DNA of 64,000 nt. It comes from Acidimicrobiia bacterium. Lineage in GTDB: Bacteria > Actinomycetota > Acidimicrobiia > Acidimicrobiales > AC-14. This document shows positions 13,009 through 43,356 of this stretch, one piece after another. Made by a program: the position numbers and the translations under genes. The notes beneath the pieces were generated by a model. The model saw nothing but the letters and a program-made list of their open reading frames with translations, ran no database searches and was not told where the DNA came from. Each line of letters begins with the position of its first letter. Position 1 is the stretch's first letter. The stretch is from NCBI GenBank assembly GCA_023265025.1, contig JAHFUP010000016.1:4754-68753 (forward strand), read 5' to 3'.

Positions 13009-13688
13009 TCAGCGGTTCGTCACGGACAGGTGGTAGGTCGCCTCGGTGCAGAATCCTGAGCGGAAGCAACCCCTGAAGTGGACGAGGTGGTCGCCGTGAC
13101 TCAGGGGGGCGAGGAGGAGATGGATCCCACCGGCCACCGCCGGTTCGTACACGCCGGCGGGAGCGCCGAGGACGTTGCCCTCCTCAAGCATCAGCGCGAA
13201 GGGTGGAGACTCGACGAGGTAGTCGCCCATGTTGGTCACCGCCATACCGTCGATCTCGGCCGAGGCGGTCGCGCCGGTCAGGTCGAGCCGCAGCTGGTCG
13301 CGCAGGTCCTGCTCGGTGGCGCCGCCACCGGGGTCGTTGGCCCAGATGGTGTTCACGACAGGAAAGAAGAGGGCCCTCCCCAAGGCACCGAACAAGTGCG
13401 GGTGACCGCGTCCCCGAACGTGCCGGCGAGGAACCATACCGATCCTGACTGGCGGACGGCGCAGTTGGCGCCCGTCGGGTCCGCCACCGGGTTGTCGGCG
13501 GCGGACCCGGCCAGGGCCCACTGCCACCACCGCGCGCTGAGCTCGGCGTAGCCGCCACCATGCGCTCGGGTGGCCGCCGGCAGCACGCCTGAATCGGGGG
13601 CACGGGCAAGCGCTGGGACGCCGCCCACCGTCGCTGCCACGACCAACGCGACGGCGGTCAGCCTCGCGCCCGTGCGGAACAACTTCAT
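13009..13688 (-). pseudogene. Secreted hypothetical protein split by a 1-nt frameshift
   Basis: The signal peptide MKLFRTGARLTAVALVVAATVGGVPALA and ..RTCSVPWG lie in ORF 13353..13688. The continuation ..RALFFPVVNTIWAND.. lies in the frame of ORF 13009..13764. The switch is at C-run 13378-13381. Confidence 0.65.
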
Positions 13689-13905
13689 CGGGCTCCCTTC
13701 CGGGCCTCGCTCTGAGGTCCTCTGCTCTTACGGGCAACCTCGCATCGGTCAGCCCGCCAGACATCCGCCAAATGGCGGATCTCTGGACGACTCGATTGGG
13801 GCCGGACGCCGTAGCATCGGTCGGTGGGCCTCGGCGTCTCGGCTCCTACGGCGGCTGCGCCGACTGGCGGATGTGTCCCGATGAGGCGGGTGACAGGTTG
13901 ACGAA

Positions 13906-14088
13906 GTGGACGTGCAGCTCAGCTTCGAACCTGGCGACCCGCCGCGCGGGCACGTCACCCGGGTCGACTCGTTGGGACCGCCAGGCGAGAAGGACGCCCA
14001 ATCGCCCGACGCGACTGTTCGATTCGAGGGCTGGCTCGGGCTGTTGCGCGTCCTCTCCGACATCCTGGCGGAACCGGACGAGCCCTGA
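13906..14088 (+). CDS. Small hypothetical protein upstream of the LuxR-type regulator
   Basis: GTG 13906. Ends 31 nt before 14119. Protein-like C-terminus ..VRFEGWLGLLRVLSDIL. Weak RBS. Confidence 0.35.
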   Translation: MDVQLSFEPGDPPRGHVTRVDSLGPPGEKDAQSPDATVRFEGWLGLLRVLSDILAEPDEP

Positions 14089-14118: not shown

Positions 14119-16872
14119 ATGAGTTCCTCAGGCCCGATCATCGGACGAGCGCGGGAGCTGGCAATGCTGCGTTCGGTGGTCGAGCGCGTTGGCGCCGGGA
14201 AGAGCCAGATCACCTTCGTCGAGGGTGAGGCCGGCATCGGGAAATCCCGGCTCTTGGCAGAAGCCCTGGAAGCGGCTGCCGTGGGCGGAGTGTTGGTCCT
14301 GGAGGGCAAGGCGGACGAGCTCCATCGGACCCGGCCCTTCGGCGCCATCGCCGACGCCCTCGCCCGCTCGCCACGATCGCTGATCGCCGATGGGCAGGGC
14401 CCGCAGTTCCGAGTCGTCGACGCCCTGGTCGAGTCCTTGGAGGAGACCGCGCTGCGGGGTCCGGTGGTCGTCGCCCTCGACGACCTCCAGTGGGCCGACC
14501 ACGCCACCCTGGTGACCGTGCGTGCCATCGCCGCCCGACTCGGGACGCTACCGGTCGGGCTCATCGGCGCTTACCGCCCGCTGCCCAGGAGCCCGACGCT
14601 CGATGGCACCGTCGACCGCGCTGTGCGCGCCGGCGGCGTTCATGTCCGCGTCGGCTCCATGAGCTCCGACGAGGTCGCCGAGCTGGCACGACGCCACCTC
14701 GGCGAGGAGCCCGGGCCCAAGCTCCTCCTCCGGCTCGCGGGCGCCGCCGGCAATCCCCTGTTCGTGTCCGAGATGGTCGCCGCCCTCGATGAGGAGGGAT
14801 CGATCACCCGCGACGCCGGCGTGGCCGACGTGCATGACGTCGCCCTGCCGGCGCCGCTGCGGCTCACGATCCTGCGGCGGATGAGCGCGCTGAGCGACGT
14901 GACCCTGGAAACCCTCCGGGCCGCCGCCACCCTCGGTGCCACCTTCGCCGTCGCCGACCTGGTCGCGGTCACCGGGCGGACGGCCCTGGAGCTGTCCTCG
15001 ATCTTGTCCGAGCCGCTGCGAGCACGGGTCGTCGAGGAGGCCGGTGACCGGCTCTGCTTCCGCCACGACCTCATCCGGGACGCGATCTACCAGGATCTCC
15101 CGCGAGGACTACGGCAGGAGCTGCACGGCCAGGCGGCCCGGGCCCTGGCCCTCGCCGGCCGCCCACCGGTGGAGGTGGCCCAGCAGTACCTGCTCGGTGC
15201 CTCCCCGAACGATCGGGACGCCATCGCCTGGCTGCGCCGGGCCGCCGATGTCGCGGCGATGCGAGCGCCGGCCAGCGCCATCGAGTTCCTACACCGAGCC
15301 GCGGACGTGGCCGGCGAGGGTGACCCCGAGCGCCATCGCATACGGGTTCGCCTGGCCGACCTCCTCGCGTATTCGGGCCGTCCCGCCGAGGCCGAGGCCC
15401 TGGTGCAGTCCCTCCTCGAGGGCGGGGAAGACCCGTCACAGGACGGCCGGCTCCTGAACACCCTCGTCCAGGCCCTGTTCGCCCAGGGCCGGTGGCGGGA
15501 GATTCCCGACATCGCCGCTGCCGCCTTGATGCGGGTGACCGTCGACGCCGGCATGCGAGCCCGCTTGCTCGCCGAGAGCGCCCTGGCCCACATCTGGACC
15601 GGTGACCTCGACGCCGCGGAAGCGGAGGCTCGACAGGCGCTGCGCCTCGGGGAGGAATCCGACGACCGGCCGGCGATGTGGAACGCCCTCGGCAACCTCT
15701 CGGCGGTGGCCGACAAGCGGGGCCGGTTCCACGAGGGCGTGGACTTGGCCCGCCGCGGCCTGGATCTGGCGCGCGGATCCGATGTCGACGCCCAGCGGCG
15801 GAACCCCCACATCGCCTTGGCCATGGCCCTGGTCACGGCCGACCGTCTCCGTGAGGCCATCGACGTGCTCCAGCAGGGTCGCCAGCAGGGTGAGCGGCTG
15901 GGCACGCTGTGGGACCTCCCCCTGTACCACGCCATGGTCTCCCTGCCCCTCCAGTCGTTGGGTGAATGGGACAGGGCCGCGGCTGAGGCGGAGGCGGCGC
16001 TGGCGTGCGCCGAGGAAGTAGGTGCCGGCGGCGGCCGGGTGGGCGCACTCGGCACACTGGCGCGGATCGCCATCCGGCGGAACCGCCTCGACGAGGCGGC
16101 GCGCTACGTCGAGGTGGCAAAAGCCATCGTCGACGAGTCGGGCCCGCAGTGGGGCAGCGTGCCGGTCGTCGCCCTGCTCGAAGCGCAGGGCGACCTGGAC
16201 GAGGCGGCAAAGCGTCTCGCCGCGGGCTGGGAATCGGCGGTTCGGGGGCGCATTGCGGAGGCGCAGGTGGGCATCGGGCCCGAGCTGGTGCGTCTCGCCC
16301 TGGCCACTGGTTCTCGGAGCTACGCCGACCATGTGGCCGGGGCGTTAGAAACGCTGGCGGCCATGGTGCGGGTGCCCGTCGCCGACGCCGGCGCGTTGCT
16401 TGCGAAAGGTCGCCTTACGGGCGACCCCGAGACGCTGCTGGCCGCGGTCGAGGCCTACCGAAAGGGCCACCGCGCCCCGGCGCGCGCCGACGCCGCCGAG
16501 GTGGCGGCGGTTGCGCTGGCCCGCGCCGGCCGATCGAGGGAAGCGGTCTCCCTGCTGGAAGAGACCATCACGACGTTCGAAGCGGTCGACGCCAAGAGAG
16601 ACCTCGCCCGGCTCCGCAGCACGATGCGGGAACTGGGCCTACGACGCGGAACTCGTTCACCCCACCGGTCGGCCCGAACCGGATGGGAGGCGCTGACCGC
16701 GACCGAGACCCAGATCGTGACGCTCGCAGCACAGGGCCTCACCAATCCGGAGATCGGGCGGCGACTCTTCATCTCGCCGCGCACGGTCCAGTCCCATCTC
16801 GCCCATATCTTTCTGAAGATCGGCGTGACCTCGCGCGTCGAGCTTGCCACTCAGGCCGCGTCACACCTGTGA
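14119..16872 (+). CDS. Large ATP-binding LuxR-family (LAL-type) transcriptional regulator
   Basis: Walker A GEAGIGKSRLL, a long helical/TPR-like middle region, and a C-terminal LuxR HTH (LTATETQIVTLAAQGLTNPEIGRRLFISPRTVQSHLAHIFLKIG). Confidence 0.9.
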   Translation: MSSSGPIIGRARELAMLRSVVERVGAGKSQITFVEGEAGIGKSRLLAEALEAAAVGGVLVLEGKADELHRTRPFGAIADALARSPRSLIADGQGPQFRVVDALVESLEETALRGPVVVALDDLQWADHATLVTVRAIAARLGTLPVGLIGAYRPLPRSPTLDGTVDRAVRAGGVHVRVGSMSSDEVAELARRHLGEEPGPKLLLRLAGAAGNPLFVSEMVAALDEEGSITRDAGVADVHDVALPAPLRLTILRRMSALSDVTLETLRAAATLGATFAVADLVAVTGRTALELSSILSEPLRARVVEEAGDRLCFRHDLIRDAIYQDLPRGLRQELHGQAARALALAGRPPVEVAQQYLLGASPNDRDAIAWLRRAADVAAMRAPASAIEFLHRAADVAGEGDPERHRIRVRLADLLAYSGRPAEAEALVQSLLEGGEDPSQDGRLLNTLVQALFAQGRWREIPDIAAAALMRVTVDAGMRARLLAESALAHIWTGDLDAAEAEARQALRLGEESDDRPAMWNALGNLSAVADKRGRFHEGVDLARRGLDLARGSDVDAQRRNPHIALAMALVTADRLREAIDVLQQGRQQGERLGTLWDLPLYHAMVSLPLQSLGEWDRAAAEAEAALACAEEVGAGGGRVGALGTLARIAIRRNRLDEAARYVEVAKAIVDESGPQWGSVPVVALLEAQGDLDEAAKRLAAGWESAVRGRIAEAQVGIGPELVRLALATGSRSYADHVAGALETLAAMVRVPVADAGALLAKGRLTGDPETLLAAVEAYRKGHRAPARADAAEVAAVALARAGRSREAVSLLEETITTFEAVDAKRDLARLRSTMRELGLRRGTRSPHRSARTGWEALTATETQIVTLAAQGLTNPEIGRRLFISPRTVQSHLAHIFLKIGVTSRVELATQAASHL

Positions 16873-29669: not shown

Positions 29670-30272
29670 ATGGCGTGGAACCTGACGGGAAGTTACGTCG
29701 AGACCTGTTCGTGCGAGCTGATGTGCCCGTGCAACCTCTCGCTCGACCACGGTGCCACCTACGACTTCTGTCGCGTGACGCTCGTGTTCAACATCCGCGA
29801 GGGACAGATCGACGGCACCGACATCGCCGGGATGAAGGTCGCAGCGATCGCGGACACACCGAAGGTGATGACCGAGGGGAACTGGAGGCTCGGGGTGTTC
29901 ATCGACGCCCGGGCGACCGACGATCAGTTCGACAAGCTCGTGCAGGTCTTCAGCGGGCAGCTCGGCGGACCGATGGCAGCACTGACGCCGTTGGTGGGTG
30001 AGGTGCTCGGCGCCGAAAGGGCCACCATCGAGGTCGTGGACGACGGGCTGCGCCACAGCGTCCGCATCGGCGACGCCATCGATTTCGAGATCGAGGACAT
30101 CGTTCCCTTCGGTGTCGAGTCGGGCCAACCGGTGCGGTTCGACGGAATGTTCCATCCGGTCGGCTCGAACCTCACGATGGCGGAGTCGAAGCGGTCGAAC
30201 ATCAACGCCTTCGGCATCGAGTACGAGGGTAAGTCCGGGCTCTCCACGGCCGAGTTCTCCTGGGCCGCCTGA
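29670..30272 (+). CDS. DUF1326 family protein
   Basis: MAWNLTGSYVETCSCELMCPCN N-terminal signature. Paired with a downstream DUF2182-like membrane protein. Confidence 0.75.
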   Translation: MAWNLTGSYVETCSCELMCPCNLSLDHGATYDFCRVTLVFNIREGQIDGTDIAGMKVAAIADTPKVMTEGNWRLGVFIDARATDDQFDKLVQVFSGQLGGPMAALTPLVGEVLGAERATIEVVDDGLRHSVRIGDAIDFEIEDIVPFGVESGQPVRFDGMFHPVGSNLTMAESKRSNINAFGIEYEGKSGLSTAEFSWAA

Positions 30273-30276
30273 CGCC

Positions 30277-31107
30277 GTGAGCGTCACGGCGGAGGCAAAC
30301 CTTCCATCGACCGGAGGGCTCCGCCCCGCGTTCTCCGCAGCACGCGCCCGGCTCGGGCTTGTCGCGCTGCTGTTCGCCGTCGCCGCTTCGGGCTGGTGGT
30401 GGACCGGCGATCAGATGCGGGGGATGGACAACGGTCCGTGGACGGGTCTCGGCTCCTTCGGCTGGTTCCTGGGTGTCTGGATCGTGATGATGGCGGCGAT
30501 GATGTTCCCGTCGGTCTCGCCGACGGTCGCTCTGTACTCCCGCATGACGAAGCAGCGTTCGCCGCTGTCGCCTCTGCTGTTCACGTCCGGCTACCTCCTC
30601 ACGTGGGCGGCCGCCGGGGTAGTCGCGTTCGCGATCGGCGCCGCACTCAACTCGATCGCAGATGGTCTGTTCGCGTGGGACCGAGCGGGCCGGTGGACCG
30701 CGGGGGGCACCCTCGTCGGCGCCGCGGTCTACGAGCTCACGCCGCTCAAGGATGTCTGCCTCGGGAAGTGCCGCAGCCCACTCGGCTTCCTGCTGGGCTC
30801 GTGGCGCGACGGTCTGTCGGGCGCGCTGCGGATGGGAGCGAAGAACGGTGCGTGGTGCGTCGGCTGCTGCTGGGCGTTGATGGCCGCGCTGTTCGCGTTG
30901 GGCATCATGAGCGTCGTGTGGATGGCCGTGATCGCCGGGCTCATCGCCTTCGAAAAGACGGTCCCGTGGCGCCGGGTCGCATCATACGGAACCGCCGCGG
31001 TCCTGCTGGCCCTCGGGCTGCTGGTGCTGGGCGCACCTCGGGCCATCCCGGGTCTTACGACTCCGAGCGACGCCCCGATGGAGCAGATGTCGCCGATGGG
31101 TTCGTAG
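30277..31107 (+). CDS. DUF2182 family metal-binding membrane protein
   Basis: GTG 30277, 4 nt after the upstream stop. ..VWIVMMAAMMFPS.. and ..AWCVGCCWALMAALFALG.. are typical of DUF2182. Confidence 0.7.
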   Translation: MSVTAEANLPSTGGLRPAFSAARARLGLVALLFAVAASGWWWTGDQMRGMDNGPWTGLGSFGWFLGVWIVMMAAMMFPSVSPTVALYSRMTKQRSPLSPLLFTSGYLLTWAAAGVVAFAIGAALNSIADGLFAWDRAGRWTAGGTLVGAAVYELTPLKDVCLGKCRSPLGFLLGSWRDGLSGALRMGAKNGAWCVGCCWALMAALFALGIMSVVWMAVIAGLIAFEKTVPWRRVASYGTAAVLLALGLLVLGAPRAIPGLTTPSDAPMEQMSPMGS

Positions 31108-31253
31108 CGGCCGGCACGGGATGCGAGGTTCGTTGCGAGCCCGCACCGGTTCGACCACTCCGATAACGAGCGGCTCGACCCGGCTCGAAGGGTCGCGGTG
31201 GCACTTCTTGGCCGGGTTGGTCGACACGCGACCCTCTCGTCAGGGTGGGCCAA

Positions 31254-32231
31254 TCAGGGCGAGGGGCGCCGCGAGGCTCGTTCCGCCCGGCGTGCGCGCC
31301 GGTACGGTCCCGCCGCCGCGGCCAGGCGTGAGCCGGCGTAGAACCAGCGCACCACGAACGCCAGCGGGAGGGTGGCCCGCCGGGCGGCCATGGAGTTGGT
31401 CCACGGCTGTGTCAGTAGCTCGTCACGCGTCGGGAAGGCCATCCGGAGCAGGGCCGCCAGCCTGGCGCCGGCGCTCATCTCGCGTGCGCGTGCCAGGACG
31501 GCGGCGTGGAAGCTTCCGTCCGCCTGAAGACGCACTGACGCCCGAGTCGGCGGCGCCAGTCCCAGCTCGTCGCAAAGTCGGGCGCCGCCGGGATGGAGGC
31601 GGAGCCCAGCGGAGAACGCCTCCCGGGCGCCGAGCTGATCCGCCACGTCGAGTGCCTCGCGCCACAGGTCGCGATCGGCCACCGACACGGCGCGCGCGAG
31701 GTCGGCGAGGACCTTCGGTGCCTTTGGGTCGTGGGCGGCGTGGAGGGTCACGATGGCGAACGTCGTCGCCCGGTCGGGAATCCGGGCGCGACCGGACCCG
31801 ACCACTGCGGCCTCACTCCGATCGAACAGCAACGTCCAGCCGTCGGCGTCGTCGGCGCGTGTGCCGGGGACCCGCCGGTGGAGATCGACGCTGACGCCCT
31901 TCGTGTTGCGGTAGGCGAGAGCGTGGTACCCGTCCGCGAAGCGAACGTCCAATCCGATGAATCCCAGCTGCGCGAGTGTGCGAACGGCGGCCGGCCAGGC
32001 CGCGGGTGCGACGAGGAGGTCGATGTCGGCGTAGGCCCGGTCGTCGCCCCCGTAGAGGTTGCGGCGCGTGGCGGGGCCTTTCAGCAGGATGCTCTCGACG
32101 CCGGCATCGGCGAGCTTCCGCACGACTCGGGCGGCCGCCAAGTCGAGCAGAGCCGGCTGCTGCCGCGGGTCGACCACCGGGTTCACAGGTTCACGGGTCG
32201 GCACCGAAGGCGACGAGGGGCGTGAAGTCAT
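31254..32231 (-). CDS. Lasso-cluster-associated nucleotidyltransferase (NTP_transf_5 / PF14907-like)
   Basis: ..SILLKGPATRRNLYGGDDRAYADIDLLVAP..LAQLGF.. Overlaps or abuts the B2 gene on the same strand. The start is uncertain (32231, 32204 or 32186). Confidence 0.7.
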   Translation of the reverse strand: MTSRPSSPSVPTREPVNPVVDPRQQPALLDLAAARVVRKLADAGVESILLKGPATRRNLYGGDDRAYADIDLLVAPAAWPAAVRTLAQLGFIGLDVRFADGYHALAYRNTKGVSVDLHRRVPGTRADDADGWTLLFDRSEAAVVGSGRARIPDRATTFAIVTLHAAHDPKAPKVLADLARAVSVADRDLWREALDVADQLGAREAFSAGLRLHPGGARLCDELGLAPPTRASVRLQADGSFHAAVLARAREMSAGARLAALLRMAFPTRDELLTQPWTNSMAARRATLPLAFVVRWFYAGSRLAAAAGPYRRARRAERASRRPSP

Positions 32232-32637
32232 CGACGGTGCCCCCGCCGCCGATGACGTCGTCGGTGCCGCAGGAGGTCCAGGCGTGGGCCGTCATCGTCG
32301 GGCCGTCCTTGTGGACACCGAGGTGCAGGACGCCGGGAAGGCGGCGGCGGCGAAGCATCCACTGCGCCGCGATGGCCTCAGTAAGGCACGCCGTCCTCCA
32401 GGGGACAGCATTCGATGCTGCCCGGACGGCGCCGCCGATCCGGACCGGGCGGCCGCCGTTCACCCGAGCTTCGGACGCCCCATCGGTCGCCGAGCCGAGA
32501 TGTGGCGCCAGGCGGCGGAACGGCACCCACCGCACCGCCGCCCGGGCCACGGCTAGCAGGACAACGGCCTCCGCGATCAGGAGTCGATCCCTCCAACCCA
32601 GCCGCCAAAACGCGGCCACACGACGACCGGCTCGCAC
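32191..32637 (-). CDS. Lasso peptide biosynthesis B2 protein (transglutaminase-like leader peptidase)
   Basis: 148 aa. ..PWRTACLTEAIAAQWMLRRRRLPGVLHLGVHKDGPTMTAHAWTSCG.. carries the Cys/His catalytic pattern of McjB-type B2 proteins. Confidence 0.8.
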   Translation of the reverse strand: MRAGRRVAAFWRLGWRDRLLIAEAVVLLAVARAAVRWVPFRRLAPHLGSATDGASEARVNGGRPVRIGGAVRAASNAVPWRTACLTEAIAAQWMLRRRRLPGVLHLGVHKDGPTMTAHAWTSCGTDDVIGGGGTVDDFTPLVAFGADP

Positions 32638-32662
32638 GGTCGAACAGTACTGTCGGCGCCCG

Positions 32663-33688
32663 ATGGGCGAGAAGCAGTCGGCCTACCGTGTCTACGGGCT
32701 CGAGGTGGCGTCGGACTACGAGCTCCCAGAGTTGATGGCGGGGCCTGGCCGGCCCGACCTGACAATCCACCGGGCTTCCGTCGCCGAGCCGCTCGCCAGC
32801 CCCGTCGTCGACGGGCCCCACGTGCAAGCCGCACCGGGCCGGTTTCGGTTGCGGGTGCCCGGGGTGGCCACGTTCCTGGCCACTGGTGGCAACGATGTGG
32901 CCGTGGCGACCGAGCTGGGCGCCAAGCCCGAGGAAGTGCGCGTCTTCCTGTACGGGTCGGTGCTGGGCGCCATCCTCCATCAGCGGGGCGTGCTCCCGCT
33001 CCACGCGAGCGCCGTCTCCGACGGAGCGCAGGCCATCCTGTTCGCCGGCCACTCCGGTCACGGGAAGTCCACGCTGGCCGCCGCCTTCCTCGAGCACGGG
33101 TACCGGCTCATGGCCGACGACGTCACCGCCGTGCGGGGTGCCGTCGCGGCGCCCGCCTACCCGCACATCAAGCTGTTCGCCGCCAACGGCTCGCTCGACA
33201 AGCAATGGCGGGCTGTCGGCGACGAGCGGTTCCTGGGCGAGCCGCGCCCCGTCACGCACGTCTACGTGCTCCTTCCCGACCAGCGCGGCGAAGTCGCGCT
33301 GGAGGAGGCGGCGTCGGGCTCCGCCCGCCTGGACCTGCTCATCGAACACACGTACCGCAGCGGGTTCCTGGCCGGCCTCGGGGTGAGGGAGGTTCACTTT
33401 CGGGCCTGTGCCACGCTCGCCCGCCAGGCACGGGTGACAGCTGTCCGGCGGCCGGCGGCCGGCTGCCCCGTCGACGAGCTACGACAGCGCATCGCCGACC
33501 ACCTCGCGGGGCTCCAGCTGGGCTGGAAAACCTCCAGCTCGGGGCCTGGCGAGACGCCACTCGCGGTCGACGCCACTGCCAGCTCGATACGTGTCGGCTT
33601 CGACCACGTCCGCTTGCCGGCCTCACCCTGCTTTTCCGGCTCCATGGGGGAGCAGTGTAGCCAGCCCGTTCCTTGCGACACCTGGTGA
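32663..33688 (+). CDS. HPr-kinase-like serine kinase associated with lasso peptide clusters
   Basis: ATG 32663, 25 nt from the divergent B2 start. P-loop GHSGHGKSTLAAAF preceded by ..GVLPLHASAV.. The last ~55 codons lie beyond the recognisable domain. Confidence 0.7.
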   Translation: MGEKQSAYRVYGLEVASDYELPELMAGPGRPDLTIHRASVAEPLASPVVDGPHVQAAPGRFRLRVPGVATFLATGGNDVAVATELGAKPEEVRVFLYGSVLGAILHQRGVLPLHASAVSDGAQAILFAGHSGHGKSTLAAAFLEHGYRLMADDVTAVRGAVAAPAYPHIKLFAANGSLDKQWRAVGDERFLGEPRPVTHVYVLLPDQRGEVALEEAASGSARLDLLIEHTYRSGFLAGLGVREVHFRACATLARQARVTAVRRPAAGCPVDELRQRIADHLAGLQLGWKTSSSGPGETPLAVDATASSIRVGFDHVRLPASPCFSGSMGEQCSQPVPCDTW

Positions 33689-33737
33689 TGCGAACCGACG
33701 GGCGCGCTTTCGATCCGCATGGCGCGATCATCTCGGC

Positions 33738-35570
33738 GTGCTCATCTCCGGTGCCGTGGGCGCTCTCGGCGCTCCAGCCGCAGCCAGCGCGACCACGGAC
33801 TTCCGGTGGACCGGCGACTGCGCCTCCCTCGAGGCCACGACAGTGGGCACCAGCCAAGGGTCGGTCGCCGTCGTGGCCGACGTGCGGCTCGACAACCGCG
33901 CGGAGCTGTGCGCCGGCCTCAGCCTCGATCGCGGGGCCGACGACGCCTCGATCCTGCTGGCCGCGTGGCGGCGGTGGGACCTGTCCTGCAGCGAGTGGCT
34001 GCGCGGCGACTTCGCCTTTGCGGTCTGGGACGACCACACCGGCCGGCTGTACTGCGGACGGGACCTTGTCGGCGTGAAACCCCTCTACTACTGGACCGGC
34101 CCCCAAGGCGCATTCGCCTTCGCCTCCCAGCTCGCCCCCCTCCTCGCGTGTGGGGCGATCGAGCGCCGCCTGGACACGGCCGCGGCCATCGAGCGCCTCC
34201 TGTTCCTGCAGCACGACACCGGCCGGACGCTGTTCGCCGGGATACGCCGGCTGCCTCCCGGCCACGCCTTGGTGGTGCGGCCCGGCGGCCGTCCGCACAT
34301 CTGGCGCCACACCCGGCTCGAGGTCGGCGACGTCGGCTCGTCCAGCCCCGAAGAGGGCGCGGCCCGCCTCCGTGACGCCGTGGTGAGGGCCGTGGCCGAC
34401 CGGCTCCCGTCGGACGGACTGGTGGGCGCGCACGTCTCCGGCGGCCTGGACAGCTCCTCGGTGGCCGGCGTGGCCGCGTCGCTCCTGCCGGCCGGCCGGC
34501 TGGTTCCGATGACGTTCTCGGCGACGCGCAGCCGGGCGGCCGAGGGCGAGGCACCGGTCGACGCCAGGTTCCTGGACGACGTGGCCGGCCAACTTGCCGT
34601 ACCCATCCATCAGCCGCCCGCCGACCTCCTGCCGTTTCCCGCTGCGCTCGAGCGGGCGGCGCCGGGGATGATGCCCCCGCCATACGCCACGTCCTCGGCC
34701 AACCGGTGGGCCGGTGAAGCCGGCGTCCGGTCCGTGTTGACCGGGTGGGGCGGCGACGAGGCTGCTTCCTTCAGCGGCCGGACCCTCCTGTCGGAGGCGG
34801 TACGGCGCGGCAAACTCGGTCGCGTCGTTCCCGCCGCTCGCGCCCTCAACCCGGGACGCTCATTTTCGGCGGGGTCCCTGGTCGGCTCGGTGGTCGAGCC
34901 GCTCCTTCCCGACCGGCTGTACTGGTGGGCGCGGTTCGCCCAAGGAGACCCGTGGATCGGCCGGCTGCGGACGACAGTCGCCAACGAAAGGACGGGGCGA
35001 GATGCAGGGCTGCTCGAGGCGCTCCACCACCCGTGGCGAACGCGAGCGACGGCGCGCGGTACCCAGCTCTCTCGGCTGCGCAGCGGGCACCTCGTCGCCC
35101 GGATGGAGAGCTGGTCGGCCGACGCCTCCCGGTTCGGCGTCGACTACCACTACCCGCTGCTCGACCGGCGGGTGCTCGAGGTGGCGCTGGGCGCGCCGTG
35201 GGACTCGTTTCTGCGTGAGGGCTCCGGGCGCTGGCTGCTCCGGACGGCGATGGCGCCGTATCTCCCGCCGTCGCTTGCCTCCAGGCAGGACAAGGAGGAC
35301 GGCTGGGGGCAGCGGGGCGACGTCGCCTTTGGAGCGGGGGCGGGGGTCGGTTTCGATCCCTCCTGGGTGCGGGCCGAGGCCGAACGTCTGCTCCGCGAGG
35401 GCAACGACCTCGGCGGCGCCGTCGACCTGCGCAAGCTGCGCGCCCGGCTGGCCGGCTCGGCGCCCCGGCGGTTCGCCACGTCGCCCGTCGCCAACATCGT
35501 GCCCCTTCTCCTCGTCGCCCCCGCCGCCCAACTGGCCGCCTTCGTCCGCCACCATCGCATGGCCACATGA
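33738..35570 (+). CDS. Lasso peptide lactam synthetase (asparagine synthetase B homologue, C protein)
   Basis: ..VADVRLDNRAEL..GDFAFAVWD..GRDLVGVKPLYYW.. and PP-loop VSGGLDSSSVAG. GTG 33738 is preferred over the ORF-track start 33591, which overlaps the kinase gene. Confidence 0.8.
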   Translation: MLISGAVGALGAPAAASATTDFRWTGDCASLEATTVGTSQGSVAVVADVRLDNRAELCAGLSLDRGADDASILLAAWRRWDLSCSEWLRGDFAFAVWDDHTGRLYCGRDLVGVKPLYYWTGPQGAFAFASQLAPLLACGAIERRLDTAAAIERLLFLQHDTGRTLFAGIRRLPPGHALVVRPGGRPHIWRHTRLEVGDVGSSSPEEGAARLRDAVVRAVADRLPSDGLVGAHVSGGLDSSSVAGVAASLLPAGRLVPMTFSATRSRAAEGEAPVDARFLDDVAGQLAVPIHQPPADLLPFPAALERAAPGMMPPPYATSSANRWAGEAGVRSVLTGWGGDEAASFSGRTLLSEAVRRGKLGRVVPAARALNPGRSFSAGSLVGSVVEPLLPDRLYWWARFAQGDPWIGRLRTTVANERTGRDAGLLEALHHPWRTRATARGTQLSRLRSGHLVARMESWSADASRFGVDYHYPLLDRRVLEVALGAPWDSFLREGSGRWLLRTAMAPYLPPSLASRQDKEDGWGQRGDVAFGAGAGVGFDPSWVRAEAERLLREGNDLGGAVDLRKLRARLAGSAPRRFATSPVANIVPLLLVAPAAQLAAFVRHHRMAT

Positions 35571-35875
35571 CTGACCTACCGAAACGCATGCCACTCTCTC
35601 CCGCGACGGTCGTCGCACGCCATCCCGACATGCTCTTCGAGCAGGTCTCAGAGGAGGTCGTCATGCTGTCGATCGCCACGGGCAAGTACTTCGGCCTGGA
35701 CCCGGTCGGCGCCGAGATCTGGCAGCTCCTGTCGGAGCCCCGCTCCATCGGGGACCTCTCCGCGGCGCTGATCGACACCTTCGACGTCGACGCAGACACC
35801 TGCCTGCGCGATGTGACCGAGTTCCTGACCACCTTGATCAGCGACGGGTCAGTGGTGGTCAGTCCGGCGTCATAA
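35567..35875 (+). CDS. PqqD-family RiPP recognition element (lasso B1 protein)
   Basis: 102 aa. ..DMLFEQVSEEVVMLSIATGKYFGLDPVGAEIWQLL.. is PqqD-like. ATGA overlap with the C gene. Confidence 0.8.
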   Translation: MTDLPKRMPLSPATVVARHPDMLFEQVSEEVVMLSIATGKYFGLDPVGAEIWQLLSEPRSIGDLSAALIDTFDVDADTCLRDVTEFLTTLISDGSVVVSPAS

Positions 35876-35995
35876 CCGGCGGGCGACTGGTGCTCGACCG
35901 CGAGCCAGATACGACGTTCAGGTCGCCGTCCCACCGGTCGATAACTCCTTTAGGCATAGGCGACGCTTGACGCAAGAGCGTCCTGACGGGAGGAG

Positions 35996-36451
35996 ATGGC
36001 GGTGTCTGACAACACGACCCTCGACAGCAGTTGGCGCACGCGACGCCTCGTGGCGTCCGCGCTAGGCGCGACGTGGCTGTTGCTCGCGGGCACCGCGTGC
36101 GGGCCGAAGTCCGAATCGCCGAGCGCGGCAAACGCCGCCGCCTCGGCCGGGGCGCCCACCCTCGCCCCGAGGACCGACCCCTCCGCCGACCAGGTAGCCC
36201 TCGCGATCGCCGCGGTCAAGGAGCGCATCCAGACGCCCTTCCTCCCGAGCGAAGGCCACGTCCGCGCCTTCGGGGACGCCGCCTGCTCCGCGTTCGACCA
36301 GGGCAAGACTGCTCCGCAGGTGAGGGGGCTGGTGTTGCAAGCGGCCTCGCAGCTTCCCTCGGCCACCGTCTCCGCGGCCGACGCCGACTTCGCGGTCGGG
36401 ACTGCGGTGAACCTGTTCTGCCCTGCCTATTCCACCAAATTGGTCCGGTAG
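35996..36451 (+). CDS. DUF732-like lipoprotein
   Basis: GGGAGGAG precedes the ATG. Lipobox LLAGTACG. Cys pair ..GDAACSAFDQGKT..AVNLFCP. Confidence 0.6.
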   Translation: MAVSDNTTLDSSWRTRRLVASALGATWLLLAGTACGPKSESPSAANAAASAGAPTLAPRTDPSADQVALAIAAVKERIQTPFLPSEGHVRAFGDAACSAFDQGKTAPQVRGLVLQAASQLPSATVSAADADFAVGTAVNLFCPAYSTKLVR

Positions 36452-36476
36452 GACCGTCCGGGGAGGAGCTTGCGAC

Positions 36477-37589
36477 ATGTCTCAGATCCTTGACCTGCCC
36501 GTAGCGACGGAGAAGCGACCGACGCCCGTCACGCCGGGCCGACGTCGCCTCACGTGGCGCGAGTGCGTGATCAGCGACCTGTTCGGCGCATGGGTGATCA
36601 TCGGGCTCTTCATCGACGGCTGGGCCCACAACCACCAGAAGCCCGAGACGATCGCCACCCCGTGGCACGGGATCCTCTACTCGGGCTTCGCCCTCGCCGC
36701 GTGCTGGGCCGTGAGCGTCGCCCGCAGGGACCAGCGGCGGGGACAGAGCATCTGGCAGTCGGCACCGGTCGGTCACTCCCTGACGCTCGTCGGGATGATC
36801 GTGTTCGCCATCGGTGGCACGAGCGACATGGTCTGGCACGCAGTGTTCGGGGTGGAGGTGAGCCTCGCCGCCCTCTTAAGCCCGACCCACCTGCTCATGT
36901 TGATAGGTGCCCTCCTGGTCATGACCGGACCGTTCCGGGCCGGATGGGCCGACGGCCGCCAGCAGGCACCGTCGTTGCGGGAATTCCTTCCGACCATCGG
37001 TTCGCTCATCCTGGTCACGGCCCTCGTCGCGTTCTTCCTCCAATACGCAACCCCGTTCCGCCGGGACAACTACGGCACCTGGGTCACGGCCTACACCGAT
37101 CTCGTCACCCGCTTCGCTGGGGCCGGGGCCAGTTACCGCGAGAGCATTCAGATAGTCGGGCTTCTGTCCCTTCTGGTGACCAACCTGATCTACATCGGCG
37201 CGCTGCTCTTCGTCCTGCGGCGGTGGCGGCCGCCGTTCGGCTCGGCCACGCTCCTGTTCTGCTCGGTGACGGCGCTCGTCGGAGGCATCGACGGCTTCGA
37301 CCGGATCGGGCCCCTGCTGGCTGCCCTGCCGGCCGGCCTGATCGGCGACCTCCTCATTCGCCGGCTCAACCCGTCGCCGGAACGGCGTGTGGCGGCCTAC
37401 GCCGTCGCCGCCATCACGTCGCTGTCGCTGTGGGCGGCCTTCTTCGTGGCCTACCAGTTGGTGTACGGCATCGGATGGACGCCTGAGCTGTGGGCCGGCG
37501 CGCTCGTGATGGCGATGATGTCGGCGACGGCGCTGAGCCTGCTCGCCTTCCCGCCCGCGCTCCCCACGGCCGTGCCCGCCGTCGACTAG
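36477..37589 (+). CDS. Polytopic membrane protein of unknown function
   Basis: 370 aa with 8 or more hydrophobic segments. GGGGAGGAG precedes the ATG. Not an ABC or MFS signature that I recognise. Confidence 0.65.
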   Translation: MSQILDLPVATEKRPTPVTPGRRRLTWRECVISDLFGAWVIIGLFIDGWAHNHQKPETIATPWHGILYSGFALAACWAVSVARRDQRRGQSIWQSAPVGHSLTLVGMIVFAIGGTSDMVWHAVFGVEVSLAALLSPTHLLMLIGALLVMTGPFRAGWADGRQQAPSLREFLPTIGSLILVTALVAFFLQYATPFRRDNYGTWVTAYTDLVTRFAGAGASYRESIQIVGLLSLLVTNLIYIGALLFVLRRWRPPFGSATLLFCSVTALVGGIDGFDRIGPLLAALPAGLIGDLLIRRLNPSPERRVAAYAVAAITSLSLWAAFFVAYQLVYGIGWTPELWAGALVMAMMSATALSLLAFPPALPTAVPAVD

Positions 37590-37843
37590 ATCGACTGCCG
37601 CCAGTGCCGGTCGCCTGAGTCCCGAGACACCTCTGCCAGATTCGGGCGCGGCACGCGGTATGGCAACGAAAGCTCCTTGCGCTGCCACCGCAGCACGCGG
37701 GCGTCAGTGCGCTCAGGGGCGTTCCGCCTACGAGGCGGGTGCGGGCGGGCCGACCTGGGCGGGGGAGGCCGGGGGTAGCATCACACGGCTTTCAGGTCGC
37801 AGGATCGGGGTGTGGTCGTGATGGCGCTAGTGAGCAGTGCGAC

Positions 37844-40324
37844 GTGAAGCATGCCGTCGGACAGGTGCGCCGGCGGCGCGTGATCATCGGTGTGCTTGCC
37901 CTGGCCGCGGCGTACTACGGGGCGGGCCGCCTGGGGTTCCTGGTCGCCATCAAAGGCAACGTCTCGCCCTTCTGGGCCCCCGCCGGAATCGCCCTGGCCT
38001 GCGTCCTCATCTGGGGCAGCCGACTGTGGCCCGGTGTAGCTCTCGGGAGTTTCCTCGTGAACACGCCCGAGTACTACACAGGAGCCAGCGCCGGTTCGAT
38101 CATGCGGTCCGTCCTCGCTGGCGCGCTCATCGCCGCGGCCGCCACGGGGGAGGCCCTCCTCGGAGCGTGGCTCGTCCGACGCTTCGGCCGCGGCACGCAC
38201 TGCCTTCAGCGGGCCCGAGACGTCGGCGTGCTCGTTCTGCTGGGTGGCGCGCTCGCATGCCTGGTCAGCTCAACTGTCGGATCGACGAGCGTGTCGGCGT
38301 TCGGTTTCGCCGACTGGCACGACTACCCGGAGACCTGGCTCACGTGGTGGTCAGGCGATGTGCTGGGCATCATCCTCGCCGCGCCCGTCATCCTGGCGTG
38401 GCGGCAGCGCCGGCAGAGAGTCGCTCCGGCGCGTTCGATCGAGGTCGTGGCCGTCCTTGCGGTGACCCTCGGCGTGGCGGAGTTGGTTTTCGGCCTCGAC
38501 CTTCCCATCATGTACCTACTTGTCCCGCTGGTCGGGTGGGCGGCCTTCCGCCTCGGGACGAGCGGCGTATCCGCCCTCATCGTCGTCATCTGCACGGTGG
38601 CGGCCCAACGCACGGTGAATGATCTCGGGCCCTTTGCCTCCAGCCACCAGAATTCCTCGCTGATCCAGCTTGGCGGATTCATCGCCATCCTCGGAATGAC
38701 GGCGTTGCTGGCCAGTGCGGTCGTGGAGGAGCGGCTCAGGCTCAAGCACGAATCGCAGACTCACGAGGAGGCGACCCGAGCCAAGAGCGTGTTCCTGGCA
38801 ACGATGAGCCACGAGATCCGCACTCCGATGATCGGCGTCATTGGAATGATGGAGGTGCTGGCCGAGACCGAGCTCACCGAGGAGCAGAGCAGCATGGTCT
38901 CGACCGCGCTGGGTTCGGCGCAGGTGCTCCTCCAGATCATCGGCGACGTCCTCGACTTCTCCAAGATCGAGGCCGACAAGCTCGATCTGGCGCCTGCCCC
39001 GTTCATGGTCCACCCGCTGGCCGAGGCAACGGTGGAGACGTTCCTCCACACTGCATCCGCCAAGGGCCTCTCGATCAGCTGCACCGTCGATGACGCTGTT
39101 GCGCCGGCCCACACCGGGGACGCGCTGCGCATTCGCCAAATCCTGAGCAACTTCATCTCCAACGCCGTCAAGTTCACGACCTCCGGTGCCGTCGTCCTGG
39201 CCGCTCGGGTTCTCTCGGACGACGGCGCGACGCAACGGGTGCAGTTCTCCGTGGCCGACACGGGCATCGGCGTGGAACCGGAGAAGCAGCGGGACCTCTT
39301 CAAGGAGTTCGCCCAAGCGGATGCGACAACCGCCAAGCGTTCGGGAGGAACGGGGCTCGGACTGGCGATCTCCCGACGGCTGGCCCTGTTGATGGGCGGG
39401 GACGTAAGGATGGAGAGCACGCCCAACGTGGGGACGACCCTGTATCTCACCGTCCCCCTCCGGATCGCCGATCCCCTCGACGTCGAGGCGGGTGCGATGG
39501 CAGTCCTCGGGACGGGCGCGCTCGTTCCGAAACGGAGACGGCCATCGCGAGATGCGGCGGAGCGCGAGGGCAGCGTCGTGCTCCTCGTCGACGACCACCC
39601 GATTAACCGGCGAGTGCTCGTCCACCAGCTGGGAATCATGGGATTCCAGGTGGACGCCGCCGAGGACGGGCACAGGGCACTCGAACTCTTCGTCAGCGGA
39701 CGCTACGGCGTCGTGATCACCGACCTCAACATGCCGATGATGGACGGGTTCGAGCTGGCTGGCGCCATCCGCCGCCACGAGGCAGACACCGGTGTGCCAC
39801 GCGCTCCGGTCATCGCCATCAGTGCCACCGTGACGCAGGAGGAGGCCGAGAAGTGCACGGCCGCAGGCATGGACGACTTCCTGGGCAAGCCGGCGCCCAT
39901 GGCCGCGCTCGCCGACAAGCTGCGTCGGTGGTTGCCGCACATCGAATGGCTCCCGGCCGAGGAGAGTGAGGGCGACTCGGACGGCGGCATGGATCCGGCC
40001 GCACTCGACGAGCTCACGGGCGGCGATCGGGAGCTGGCGGCCGACATCCTCAGGGACTACGCCGATTCACTCCCCACCGACCTCGTCGCGATCAGTCGCG
40101 CGCTGACGGACGGGAACGCCCCGGAACTCCATCGCACGGCCCACAGGATGAAGGGCGCCGGCCGCACGGTCGGCGCCCGCGAATTGGCCATGCTCGCTGC
40201 CCGTCTGGAGGTCACCACGTCGATCCCCGTAGAGGACTGGGACGTCGTGCGCGTCATTGCGAGCGAGCTCAAGGACGCGGCCACCCGGTTCGTGGGGATG
40301 AGCGCCGCTGCCCCTCCTCGCTGA
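37844..40324 (+). CDS. Hybrid sensor histidine kinase (MASE1-like membrane sensor, HisKA, HATPase, REC, HPt)
   Basis: H-box MSHEIRTPM, G2 box GGTGLGLAISRRL, REC (LLVDDHPINRRVL..DLNMPMMDG), HPt (LHRTAHRMKGAG). The start is uncertain (GTG 37844). Confidence 0.85.
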   Translation: MKHAVGQVRRRRVIIGVLALAAAYYGAGRLGFLVAIKGNVSPFWAPAGIALACVLIWGSRLWPGVALGSFLVNTPEYYTGASAGSIMRSVLAGALIAAAATGEALLGAWLVRRFGRGTHCLQRARDVGVLVLLGGALACLVSSTVGSTSVSAFGFADWHDYPETWLTWWSGDVLGIILAAPVILAWRQRRQRVAPARSIEVVAVLAVTLGVAELVFGLDLPIMYLLVPLVGWAAFRLGTSGVSALIVVICTVAAQRTVNDLGPFASSHQNSSLIQLGGFIAILGMTALLASAVVEERLRLKHESQTHEEATRAKSVFLATMSHEIRTPMIGVIGMMEVLAETELTEEQSSMVSTALGSAQVLLQIIGDVLDFSKIEADKLDLAPAPFMVHPLAEATVETFLHTASAKGLSISCTVDDAVAPAHTGDALRIRQILSNFISNAVKFTTSGAVVLAARVLSDDGATQRVQFSVADTGIGVEPEKQRDLFKEFAQADATTAKRSGGTGLGLAISRRLALLMGGDVRMESTPNVGTTLYLTVPLRIADPLDVEAGAMAVLGTGALVPKRRRPSRDAAEREGSVVLLVDDHPINRRVLVHQLGIMGFQVDAAEDGHRALELFVSGRYGVVITDLNMPMMDGFELAGAIRRHEADTGVPRAPVIAISATVTQEEAEKCTAAGMDDFLGKPAPMAALADKLRRWLPHIEWLPAEESEGDSDGGMDPAALDELTGGDRELAADILRDYADSLPTDLVAISRALTDGNAPELHRTAHRMKGAGRTVGARELAMLAARLEVTTSIPVEDWDVVRVIASELKDAATRFVGMSAAAPPR

Positions 40325-41260: not shown

Positions 41261-41938
41261 ATGGGCGTCGCCATCACCCTCCGGGGGCTCACTCACACCT
41301 ATCGCACGGCCGAGGGCCCCCTCACCGTCCTCGGCGGGCTCGACCTCGACGTGGCCGACGGCGGCTACGCGGCCATCACCGGGCCGTCGGGCGCCGGCAA
41401 GACCACCCTCCTCTCCCTCCTCGGTGGCCTGGAGGCTCCCCAGGTCGGGCGGCTGGAGGTCGGCGGCCAGGACCTCACGGGGCTCAGCGGCGACGAGCTG
41501 GCCGCCTACCGGCGGGCCACCGTGGGGTTCGTCTTCCAGCACTTCGGGCTCCTGGAGACGCTCACCGCCGCCCAGAACGTCGAGCTGGCCGGCACGCTCA
41601 ACGGCACCAGTCCGGCCGAGCGCCGGGCCCGGGCCCGCGAGCTGCTCGACGCCGTCGGCCTGTCCGAGCGGGCCGGTCACCGCCCGTCTCGGCTTTCGGG
41701 CGGGGAGCGCCAGCGGGTGGCCATCGCCCGCGCCCTGGTCAACGAGCCCCGGCTGCTGCTGGCCGACGAGCCCACCGGGAACCTCGACGACGACGCCTCG
41801 CTCATGGTGATCGAGCTCCTGGAGAAAGTGCGGGCCGACCACGGGTGCACCATGGTCGTGGTCACCCACAACCGCCAGCTCGCCACCCGGGCCGACATGC
41901 GCATCCCCCTCGATCGCGGGCATCGCGTGCCCGCATGA
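41261..41938 (+). CDS. ABC transporter ATP-binding protein (MacB/LolD/FtsE-like)
   Basis: GPSGAGKTTLL, LSGGERQRVAIARAL, LLLADEPTGNLD. Confidence 0.9.
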   Translation: MGVAITLRGLTHTYRTAEGPLTVLGGLDLDVADGGYAAITGPSGAGKTTLLSLLGGLEAPQVGRLEVGGQDLTGLSGDELAAYRRATVGFVFQHFGLLETLTAAQNVELAGTLNGTSPAERRARARELLDAVGLSERAGHRPSRLSGGERQRVAIARALVNEPRLLLADEPTGNLDDDASLMVIELLEKVRADHGCTMVVVTHNRQLATRADMRIPLDRGHRVPA

Positions 41939-43356
41939 GATGGCGGGACGCCGCCGCGCTGGCGGCCACCAGCATCCGGCGGCGGTTTGGGCGATCGGTG
42001 CTGACCGTGGCCGCGGTCGCCCTGGCCGCCACCCTCCTCACCGCCCTGGTCACCATCGCCGGCACGGCCCGCACCAAGGTGCTCTCGGAGCTGTCCAAGG
42101 GCGGCCCGCTCTCGGGCATCAACGTCGCCGCCGCCGAGGCGGACCCCAGCCAGGTCGACACCGACGACCCCCGGCCCGGCCCGCCCAAGGATCTCGACGA
42201 CAGGATCCGGGCCAAGATCACCGCCATGCCCGACGTGAAGTCGGTGCTGCCCATCGTCGCCGCTGTGGTCAACGTGATCGTGCCCGAGCCGCCGGCCAAC
42301 GCGGCGGTCCTGGCCCGGCAACCCGCCCTTCCCTCGACGCTGCCGCCGACCACGGCCCCGGCGCGTGAGACCCCACCGCCCACCGCGCCCCGGCCGACGG
42401 TGCCCGGCCTGACGACACCCGACCCGTTCCCCGAGACGATGGTCGGCATCGATCTCGAGCGGGCGTCGCTCATGCCCATCACCATCCTCAGCGGACGGCT
42501 CCCGGTGCCGAAGTCGCTCACCGAGGTCGCGGTGACCCAGGGCTACCTGACCCGGATGGGGCTGACGAAGAAGCAGGCCGCCGCCGTCGTCGGTACCGAG
42601 GTCCAGCTCGGCGCGCCACGGGTGTTCACCGACTCGGGCGTCCCCCGGCGGTTCCGCAGCCGCTGGGTGCGCCTGACCATCGTCGGCGTCGTGGCCCAGG
42701 AGACGGCGCCCGGCCAGTTCGTCGTCTCCCTGGAGCAGTCCCGCGCCGCCCGGAACTGGACGGCGGCCGGCAGCGACGCCGAGGGACGCGTCCAGATACC
42801 GACGTCGCCGTACAGCGGGCTGTTCGTCATCGCCAACGACCTGGAGAAGGTGAACCAGGTCCGGCGCGACATCACCGAGCTCGGGTACTCCACCAGCGCG
42901 CCGGAGAACCTGGTGGCCTCGGTCCAGCGGTACCTGCGGGTGGTCGAGATCGTGCTGGGGGCGATCGGCGCCATCGCCCTGGTCATCGCCTCGCTCGGCA
43001 TCGCCAACGCCTTGCTGGCCGCCGTCCGCGAGCGCCGGCGGGAGATCGGGGTGCTCAAGGCCATCGGCGCCCGGGACCGCGACGTGCAACGGGTCTTCCT
43101 GTTCGAGGCCGGCGTGCTGGGCCTGGTGGGAGGCGTCGCCGGCGCCGCCATGGGCTTCGGCACCGCCCTGGGCGTGAGCGCGGTCGTGAACCAGTACCTC
43201 GCGGCCCAGGGCCTCAGGGGTGTGCACCTCGGGCTCCCGGTCCTCGTGCTGCTCGGCGCCGTCTTCGGCTCCACCCTCCTTGCCCTCGGTGCCGGGACCC
43301 TGCCCGCCCGCCGGGCGGCGCGGATGCCGGCCCGTGAGGCCATGGAGGCGGCGTGA
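41935..43356 (+). CDS. FtsX-like ABC transporter permease
   Basis: ATGA overlap with the ATPase gene. N-terminal TM, large extracytoplasmic region, C-terminal FtsX-type TM bundle (..RRREIGVLKAIGARDRDV..). Confidence 0.8.
   Translation: MRWRDAAALAATSIRRRFGRSVLTVAAVALAATLLTALVTIAGTARTKVLSELSKGGPLSGINVAAAEADPSQVDTDDPRPGPPKDLDDRIRAKITAMPDVKSVLPIVAAVVNVIVPEPPANAAVLARQPALPSTLPPTTAPARETPPPTAPRPTVPGLTTPDPFPETMVGIDLERASLMPITILSGRLPVPKSLTEVAVTQGYLTRMGLTKKQAAAVVGTEVQLGAPRVFTDSGVPRRFRSRWVRLTIVGVVAQETAPGQFVVSLEQSRAARNWTAAGSDAEGRVQIPTSPYSGLFVIANDLEKVNQVRRDITELGYSTSAPENLVASVQRYLRVVEIVLGAIGAIALVIASLGIANALLAAVRERRREIGVLKAIGARDRDVQRVFLFEAGVLGLVGGVAGAAMGFGTALGVSAVVNQYLAAQGLRGVHLGLPVLVLLGAVFGSTLLALGAGTLPARRAARMPAREAMEAA

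Follow-up and report, generated by a model that had tools for sequence, protein, structure and literature searches.

Introduction

In the biosynthesis of the lasso peptide pseudomycoidin, the kinase PsmK phosphorylates the C-terminal serine of the peptide and PsmN adds a hexose to the resulting phosphate (PMC6993621, PMC9266682). The psm cluster of Bacillus pseudomycoides DSM 12442 encodes a cyclase (C), a precursor peptide (A), an HprK-like kinase (K), the proteins B1 and B2, and, after B2, a PF14907 protein (N), in a co-directional set of genes that ends in the ABC exporter gene psmD (PMC6993621). The paeninodin (pade), ThcoK, and SyanK clusters, whose hosts are Firmicutes or Sphingomonadales, also combine split B1 and B2 proteins with an HprK-like kinase that targets the C-terminal serine of the linear precursor, and they carry an exporter gene (D); pade has no N (PMC9266682, PMC8498205). 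N is described as located between the B2 and D genes or as a fusion with B2 (PMC8498205). Characterized lasso kinases from outside Firmicutes include SyanK of Sphingobium and BsfK of Bradymonas, the latter from a cluster that also has N (PMC9266682, PMC10368454). Here, we analyze a 64,000-nucleotide stretch of contig JAHFUP010000016.1 (assembly GCA_023265025.1; hereafter the window) from an Acidimicrobiia bacterium of the order Acidimicrobiales, and find that window positions 31254-35875 form a lasso-peptide cluster that is compact (4.6 kb), of the split-B type, and kinase-associated in the manner of paeninodin and pseudomycoidin. We conclude that the convergent junction between its kinase and precursor genes has probably been damaged, likely by a small deletion, and that the cluster is possibly non-producing.

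The window cluster has the same C, A, K, B1, B2, and N genes as psm, with a matching catalytic motif in its HprK-like kinase and an aligned DxD motif in its PF14907 protein. PsmA ends in serine, as do the relatives of the window precursor, whereas the window precursor lacks a serine followed by a stop codon. The window also differs from psm in lacking D and in placing A on the opposite strand. It shares the B1/B2 split and the HprK-like kinase with the pade, ThcoK, and SyanK clusters, but not their D. The bsf cluster of Bradymonas sediminis has K, N, B1, B2, C, and A, and thereby shows K and N together outside Firmicutes; unlike the window, it has D, its kinase phosphorylates Ser3, and its leader has isoleucine at position -2, where the window leader keeps threonine (PMC10368454).

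A lasso precursor gene lies antisense to the 3' extension of the kinase gene

The cluster is arranged as two leftward genes, B2 and then N, that diverge from a rightward K, followed by A on the minus strand and by C and B1 on the plus strand. The original prediction for this DNA, made from the sequence alone, listed the five enzyme genes, and an open reading frame (ORF) check bore out all five with their coordinates and quoted motifs. That inventory overlooked the precursor gene A, which lies on the minus strand between K and C, from 33645 downward.

The clue to A came from scanning K-containing loci for lasso-like small ORFs, which turned up a 45-aa peptide, MSDASEQRDRGKRPWSTPSVVELPVGSTE followed by SGPVAGGTEDEASHIS, on the contig of the closest K homologue (L003; 65% identity). 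In the window, about 220 nt remain between the end of K homology (codon ~283, position 33511) and C. Database searches yielded nine further relatives (P0121-P0123, P0188, P0191-P0194, P0196), so that the family comprises at least 10 related precursors. We built a profile from four relatives, leaving out the window sequence, and searched it against a six-frame translation of the 64-kb window. It matched A (E = 3.7e-10, 33397-33741(-)) and no other place, the next best match having an E-value of 0.78.

From its ATG at 33645, A encodes a 28-aa leader, MEPEKQGEAGKRTWSKPTRIELAVASTA (33562-33645(-)), and a conserved 17-aa core, SGVSPGPELEVFQPSWS (33511-33561(-)). An alignment of 11 precursors shows invariant Trp14, Pro17, Leu22, and Thr27 (position -2) in the leader, and invariant Gly2 and acceptor Glu in the core. 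A lasso precursor is expected to have a YxxP-type leader motif, Thr at -2, a small residue at core position 1, and Asp or Glu at core position 7-9; the window precursor accordingly has W14-S-K-P17, Thr27 at -2, core Ser1, and Glu8, with a predicted Ser1-Glu8 macrolactam. Its nearest cores are GGSSPGPIELVIPQ... (P0193, 27 aa) and GGVVPFSPELPAYKPAS (P0192, 17 aa). The PadeA leader (YSKPSLEVL...QTM, with a core starting AGPG) resembles that of the window (WSKPTRIEL...STA, with a core starting SGVSPGP).

Other precursor candidates were rejected. A regular-expression search near the cluster (start...T-x-[GASC]x5-7[DE]...stop) returned only artefacts on the antisense strand of K and other genes, and missed A because A has no nearby stop codon. 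Small ORFs beyond N and B1 (31055-31204(-) and 35890-35970(+)) have no lasso motif and no profile match. We also ruled out that the 3' extension of K is a borosin-like fused core peptide, as the precursor homology is on the opposite strand.

Neither gene has a stop codon at the kinase-precursor junction

K and A meet tail-to-tail at ~33508-33513, and neither gene has a stop codon there. In all 10 relatives, the precursor stops right after a terminal serine and the core is 16-27 aa long. In the window, the Ser17 codon (33513-33511) is instead followed by 38 further codons and a TGA (33396-33394; read-through 33394-33510(-)), within an ORF spanning 33394..33720(-). As encoded, A is thus an 83-aa protein whose 55-aa core ends in ...AQARK, longer than the 15-30 residues or so expected of a lasso core, longer than any core among the relatives, and lacking the terminal serine. 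Because A lacks this serine and stop, the expected substrate of the kinase, a C-terminal serine, is absent. The 38 extra residues are Arg-rich, are encoded antisense to the conserved C-terminus of K, and have no homologues.

The kinase gene reads through the same point. All 24 aligned K homologues end near codon 283, and the homology of A ends at Ser17, whose codon abuts that position. Beyond its conserved part (codons 1-283, 32663-33511(+)), window K continues for 58 codons and a stop (33512-33688(+)), a tail that is antisense to A and has no counterpart in these homologues. The GC1/GC2 coding signature of the K body (0.78/0.50) is lost in the tail (0.60/0.64).

The junction is identical in the Logan assembly L002 and the ENA assembly L001. 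Across 18 kb, L001 differs from the window by six single-nucleotide polymorphisms (SNPs) and one indel, all outside the junction (99.96% identity). Since non-identical assemblies have it in common, the junction is not an artefact of a single assembly. The differences, among them one extra G at L001:1972 (GGG, versus GG at window 27041) and a SNP in the cyclase gene at 35441, point to two closely related populations.

The simplest explanation, and most likely the correct one among the models we considered, is a small deletion that removed both stop codons, since one event then explains both read-throughs. Under this model the native core would be about 17 aa long, SGVSPGPELEVFQPSWS, comparable to the 17-aa GGVVPFSPELPAYKPAS of P0192.

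An unlikely alternative, though the strongest of those we considered, is a fully functional cluster whose product is a phosphorylated, further decorated lasso peptide, the read-through of A being due to a 1-nt deletion or a sequencing error within the CCCC run (33511-33508). The -1 frame of A reads ...PREVVGDALS and then TAG (33481-33479), and the true core would be SGVSPGPELEVFQPSWSPREVVGDALS, 27 aa with a terminal serine, overlapping the last 11 conserved codons of K; the repaired end would read ...QPSWSPREVVGDALS-TAG. In favor of this explanation, the frame ends (...GDALS-TAG) at a natural core length, shared with the 27-aa core of P0193, and all enzymes are intact. Yet two non-identical assemblies carry the identical junction, and the repair does not restore the stop codon of K, whose tail stays ~50 aa long in the other frame, so that a second event is still needed. 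The rare CTA and CGA codons in K, which are the source of the antisense TAG, are no evidence of a selected overlap: K of L165 and L170 shares them, and nothing overlaps K there.

We also considered whether the mutual overlap could itself be functional, with a real 83-aa precursor bearing a long basic tail, a real 58-aa-extended kinase, and phosphorylation of an internal serine. BsfK sets a precedent, in that its target is Ser3 of a precursor whose last residue is not serine (PMC10368454), and the junction is stable in two populations. These populations are 99.96% identical, however, and thus provide no test of selection. The uniformity of the 10 related precursors, with their 16-27-aa cores ending in serine, argues against a functional overlap, as do the nature of the 38 extra residues (merely the Arg-rich antisense of the K C-terminus) and the lack of any homologue of the K tail in 24 relatives; we judge this reading highly improbable. 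Equally improbable is the related idea that the antisense nesting of A inside the 3' extension of K is a functional overlap in which convergent transcription couples or throttles expression of the two genes. If true, functional nesting would mean that a member of Acidimicrobiia, a class from which no characterized lasso peptide is known, makes a lasso-type product that is large and atypical.

The five enzyme genes encode split-B lasso machinery, a kinase, and a nucleotidyltransferase-like protein

B2 (32191-32637(-), 148 aa) is a transglutaminase-like leader peptidase, a Cys protease, that matches PF13471 (E = 2.9e-24) and the lasso_biosyn_B2 model NF033537 (E = 1e-27), scoring 97 bits where the cut-off is 33. 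C (33738-35570(+), 610 aa) is an asparagine-synthetase-like lasso cyclase with an SGGLDSS motif and is 49% identical to C of L165 and L170. It matches PF00733 (E = 5.6e-31) and GATase_7 (E = 4.4e-19), and its best NCBIfam match is the lasso cyclase model NF033535 (E = 4.4e-74), at 250 bits against a curated cut-off of 525. From gene calls and the N-termini of relatives, we replaced a start at 33591 with 33738; these N-termini were compared by eye (MLISGAVG in the window, MTLLCGSVD in relatives), and a MAFFT alignment that includes the upstream extension does not pair them. B1 (35567-35875(+), 102 aa) is a PqqD-like leader-recognition protein (RRE) that matches PF05402 (E = 7.1e-20) and lasso_PqqD_Bac (NF033536, E = 1.1e-19), the latter at 70 bits against a curated cut-off of 80. 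These matches agree with the original assignment of B1, B2, and C as split-B lasso machinery, and reading the sequence confirms that B1 is coupled to C by an ATGA overlap and that 25 nt (32638-32662) separate the divergent starts of B2 and K.

The full K ORF (32663-33688(+)) scores below the curated cut-offs of the Pfam and NCBIfam models PF07475 (2.4e-5) and HprK_rel_A (1.3e-10). Its assignment as an HPr-kinase-like protein nevertheless holds, through homologues and catalytic residues. K has 228 homologues, which carry PF27840 (ScmC) and PF07475. A kinase encoded in a Bacillales psm-like cluster is 29% identical to K (E = 6e-40), with an alignment that covers the full length of K. An alignment of 25 sequences shows no variation at H114, G132, G134, K135, S136, T137, or D153, and at least 90% conservation at D152; His-Lys-Asp-Asp is the motif of lasso kinases (PMC9266682). 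A stretch of ~15 aa that every other aligned kinase has is deleted in both window K and P0002, its closest homologue (window 33160-33200; alignment columns 209-223).

N (31254-32231(-), 325 aa) is a nucleotidyltransferase-like tailoring enzyme whose gene shares 41 nt with the 3' end of B2. As predicted, it is a PF14907-type (NTP_transf_5) protein (E = 4.6e-21). Its D69-x-D71 and LKGP motifs align with N of the Bacillales psm-like cluster L018, in which D69 and D71 correspond to D134 and D136; these residue numbers are reported as essential in PsmN (PMC6993621). N is ~21% identical to its Bacillales counterpart, and its subfamily is ~60 aa shorter at the N-terminus. The Pfam match begins at profile position 56, but we ruled out that N is truncated N-terminally, as its closest homologues are equally short (300-345 aa). 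A PDB sequence search with N gave no match. Fusions of B2 and N exist, one of them in a Jatrophihabitantaceae metagenome-assembled genome (MAG; L173) in which the cluster further encodes a sulfotransferase, D, B1, and C and contains two K-like genes of 280 and 286 aa (L173:11392-12234 and 13170-14030).

Could these genes be a chance neighborhood, or another HprK/PqqD-type system for peptides made on the ribosome and modified after translation, such as SynChlorMet or HPr-rel-A? The sub-cut-off scores of K, with weak matches also to ScmC and HprK_rel_A/B, would fit such a system. Lasso models, however, match B2 above the cut-off and are the best NCBIfam matches for C and B1 (both below cut-offs), a canonical lasso precursor is present, and dozens of loci combine these genes. 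A non-lasso assignment, to which we give almost no weight, is effectively refuted by the precursor and the lasso-specific models.

The kinase and nucleotidyltransferase genes commonly occur together

To place the cluster among comparable loci, we collected 80 genome and 80 metagenome loci around K homologues and screened them with iterated profiles that started from the window proteins. We counted gene content in the 46 K loci that have at least 7 kb on each side and encode a lasso-like core, defined as C together with B1 or B2. N is present in 30 of these 46 loci, as is a D-type ABC exporter (30/46), and 25 carry B1, B2, C, K, and N together. The hosts of K loci span Bacillales, Alpha-, Beta-, Gamma-, and Deltaproteobacteria, Acidobacteria, Nitrospira, Rokubacteria, Cyanobacteria, Bacteroidota, and Actinomycetota, the last including Marmoricola, Actinophytocola, Qaidamihabitans, and Solirubrobacterales. 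The combination of K and N, singled out by the original prediction as special, is a common state found in many phyla. A metagenome scan with the single K protein returned no matches, and an alignment-based scan returned only distant relatives; in the Qaidamihabitans locus (L069), the ORFs picked as cyclase candidates gave no Pfam matches.

The same prediction held that the tailoring chemistry had been characterized only in Firmicutes. This does not apply to the kinase, given SyanK and BsfK; for the N step it stands, and we know of that step solely from Bacillus.

Metagenomic relatives share the layout and vary in tailoring genes

The closest relatives of the window cluster are metagenomic loci (L003, L164-L170, L173, L176) that share its precursor family, the divergent B2/K pair, and the divergence of A from C-B1, with identities to the window of 45-65% for K, 49% for C, and 53% for N (P0125). 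The divergent B2/K pair recurs in L003, L164, L166, and L167, with spacers of 19-92 nt in the latter three. A diverges from C-B1 in L165, L170, and L176, and also in L003, where an AMP-ligase gene lies between A and C. The A/C start-to-start spacer is 92 nt in the window (33646-33737, from gene calls) and 107 nt in L165. Since this layout recurs among the relatives, it is the norm of the clade rather than the oddity that it had been taken for. We found no sigma-70 consensus match in the A/C spacer, and a scan for promoter and terminator consensus sequences was empty.

Unlike the window, these relatives have precursors that stop after a terminal serine, and they carry extra tailoring genes, either a sulfotransferase or an AMP-ligase with an acyl carrier protein (ACP) and an acyltransferase. 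A PF00685 sulfotransferase gene lies directly beside K in L164 (2895-3755), L165 (852-1712), L170 (10038-10898), and L173 (12334-13173), and sulfotransferase-like ORFs occur in 16 of the 46 counted loci; such loci may encode sulfated lasso peptides. On three independent metagenome contigs, a precursor of the A family adjoins an AMP-binding (acyl-ligase-like) gene (L003:4387-7102, L169:1167-2760, L176:2694-4213), and in L003 K is also followed by genes for an ACP and an LpxL-like acyltransferase. This gene content suggests an acylated, perhaps lipidated, kinase-type lasso peptide.

The exporter gene is missing

As the original prediction noted, no D-type exporter or isopeptidase gene adjoins the cluster. 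We found no D-type ABC exporter (ABC_membrane + ABC_tran) between positions 25 and 41 kb of the window. The closest transporter genes, an ABC_tran/FtsX pair of MacB type, are at 41261-43356, past a hybrid histidine kinase and an antitoxin. This exporter-less state is a minority among comparable loci, four of the 46 having all five genes without D. In the close relatives L166 and L164, a D-type exporter gene adjoins B2, so the exporter is missing here rather than absent from the clade. In L166 (82-3074; K 49% identical), N and D occur together, convergent on B2, whereas the window keeps N and has no D.

The cluster is bounded by unrelated genes

Downstream of B1, we confirmed the predicted DUF732-like lipoprotein and polytopic membrane protein; the latter is 370 aa long and has no Pfam or NCBIfam match. 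Neither gene is seen in a K locus other than the window, and the two apparently recur as a pair, with no lasso genes, on a contig of an Acidimicrobiales MAG (L175), which excludes them as an exporter or as cluster members. They may be a unit independent of the lasso genes (window 35996-37589; L175:4682-6275); in L175, the membrane-protein homologue is preceded by a 149-aa gene that equals the DUF732-like gene in length and is its putative counterpart. The upstream neighbors are a DUF1326 and PpoB2/DUF2182 gene pair (29670-31107), and the DUF1326 protein sits in a 90%-identity cluster of 840 mostly metagenomic members. With these flanking genes on both sides placed outside it, the cluster is confined to 31254-35875. 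Farther out are a MASE1 hybrid histidine kinase gene with receiver and Hpt domains downstream (37739-40324) and a large LAL-type regulator gene (AAA_16/TPR/GerE) upstream (14119-16872). Proteins that share 90% identity or more with three of the flanking window genes bear the name Acidimicrobiales bacterium; together with a GC content of about 70%, this assigns the window to Actinomycetota, probably to Acidimicrobiales.

Discussion

By analogy with characterized homologues, we can propose a pathway that an intact form of this cluster would follow. B1 would bind the WxxP...EL leader of A, and K, probably helped by B1 as with BsfK, would phosphorylate the C-terminal serine of the linear precursor. 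B2 would then cut the leader off after Thr(-2)-Ala(-1), and C would activate Glu8 and join its side chain to the amine of Ser1, forming an 8-residue ring. Finally, N would add a hexose or similar group to the phosphate. The analogy to pseudomycoidin, with a kinase followed by decoration of the phosphate, was drawn in the original prediction and agrees with published work (PMC6993621, PMC9266682). The genes for both tailoring steps are present as that prediction stated, but the precursor as encoded has no C-terminal serine and stop, and we consider it doubtful that a doubly tailored peptide is produced from this locus.

The missing exporter and the lost stop codons together suggest a recently damaged cluster, possibly a recently inactivated copy. 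Several points weigh against this interpretation. All five enzyme ORFs are intact and retain their catalytic motifs, which would not be expected in a decaying cluster. The deletion is one that we infer rather than observe, and no intact orthologous junction turned up with which to compare it. Repairing one nucleotide in the CCCC run also yields a plausible 27-aa core ending in serine, and since BsfK phosphorylates an internal serine, a terminal serine is not strictly needed by every lasso kinase (PMC10368454). The exporter is also absent from four of the 25 five-gene clusters, so its absence alone is no sign of decay. As for the decoration step, what is known of the chemistry of N comes from one Bacillus enzyme, with only ~21% identity. 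On balance, we still regard damage to the K/A junction as the probable explanation.

Our analysis adds two elements to the earlier picture of this locus: an antisense-nested precursor gene with both stops lost, and a clade of related clusters with swappable tailoring genes. The locus is a caution for automated calls of biosynthetic gene clusters, because its enzymes look complete while the substrate gene is probably broken, both stops having been lost at one junction. If the cluster is intact or can be repaired, an uncultured Acidimicrobiales lineage would contribute a new lasso core (SGVSPGPELEVFQPSWS...), and serine phosphorylation and PsmN-type tailoring would be extended to Actinomycetota. 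The wider value lies in the soil-metagenome clade, in which one precursor family is combined with swapped modules (a nucleotidyltransferase; a sulfotransferase; or an acyl-ligase, ACP, and acyltransferase), and which makes a better mining target than the window locus itself.

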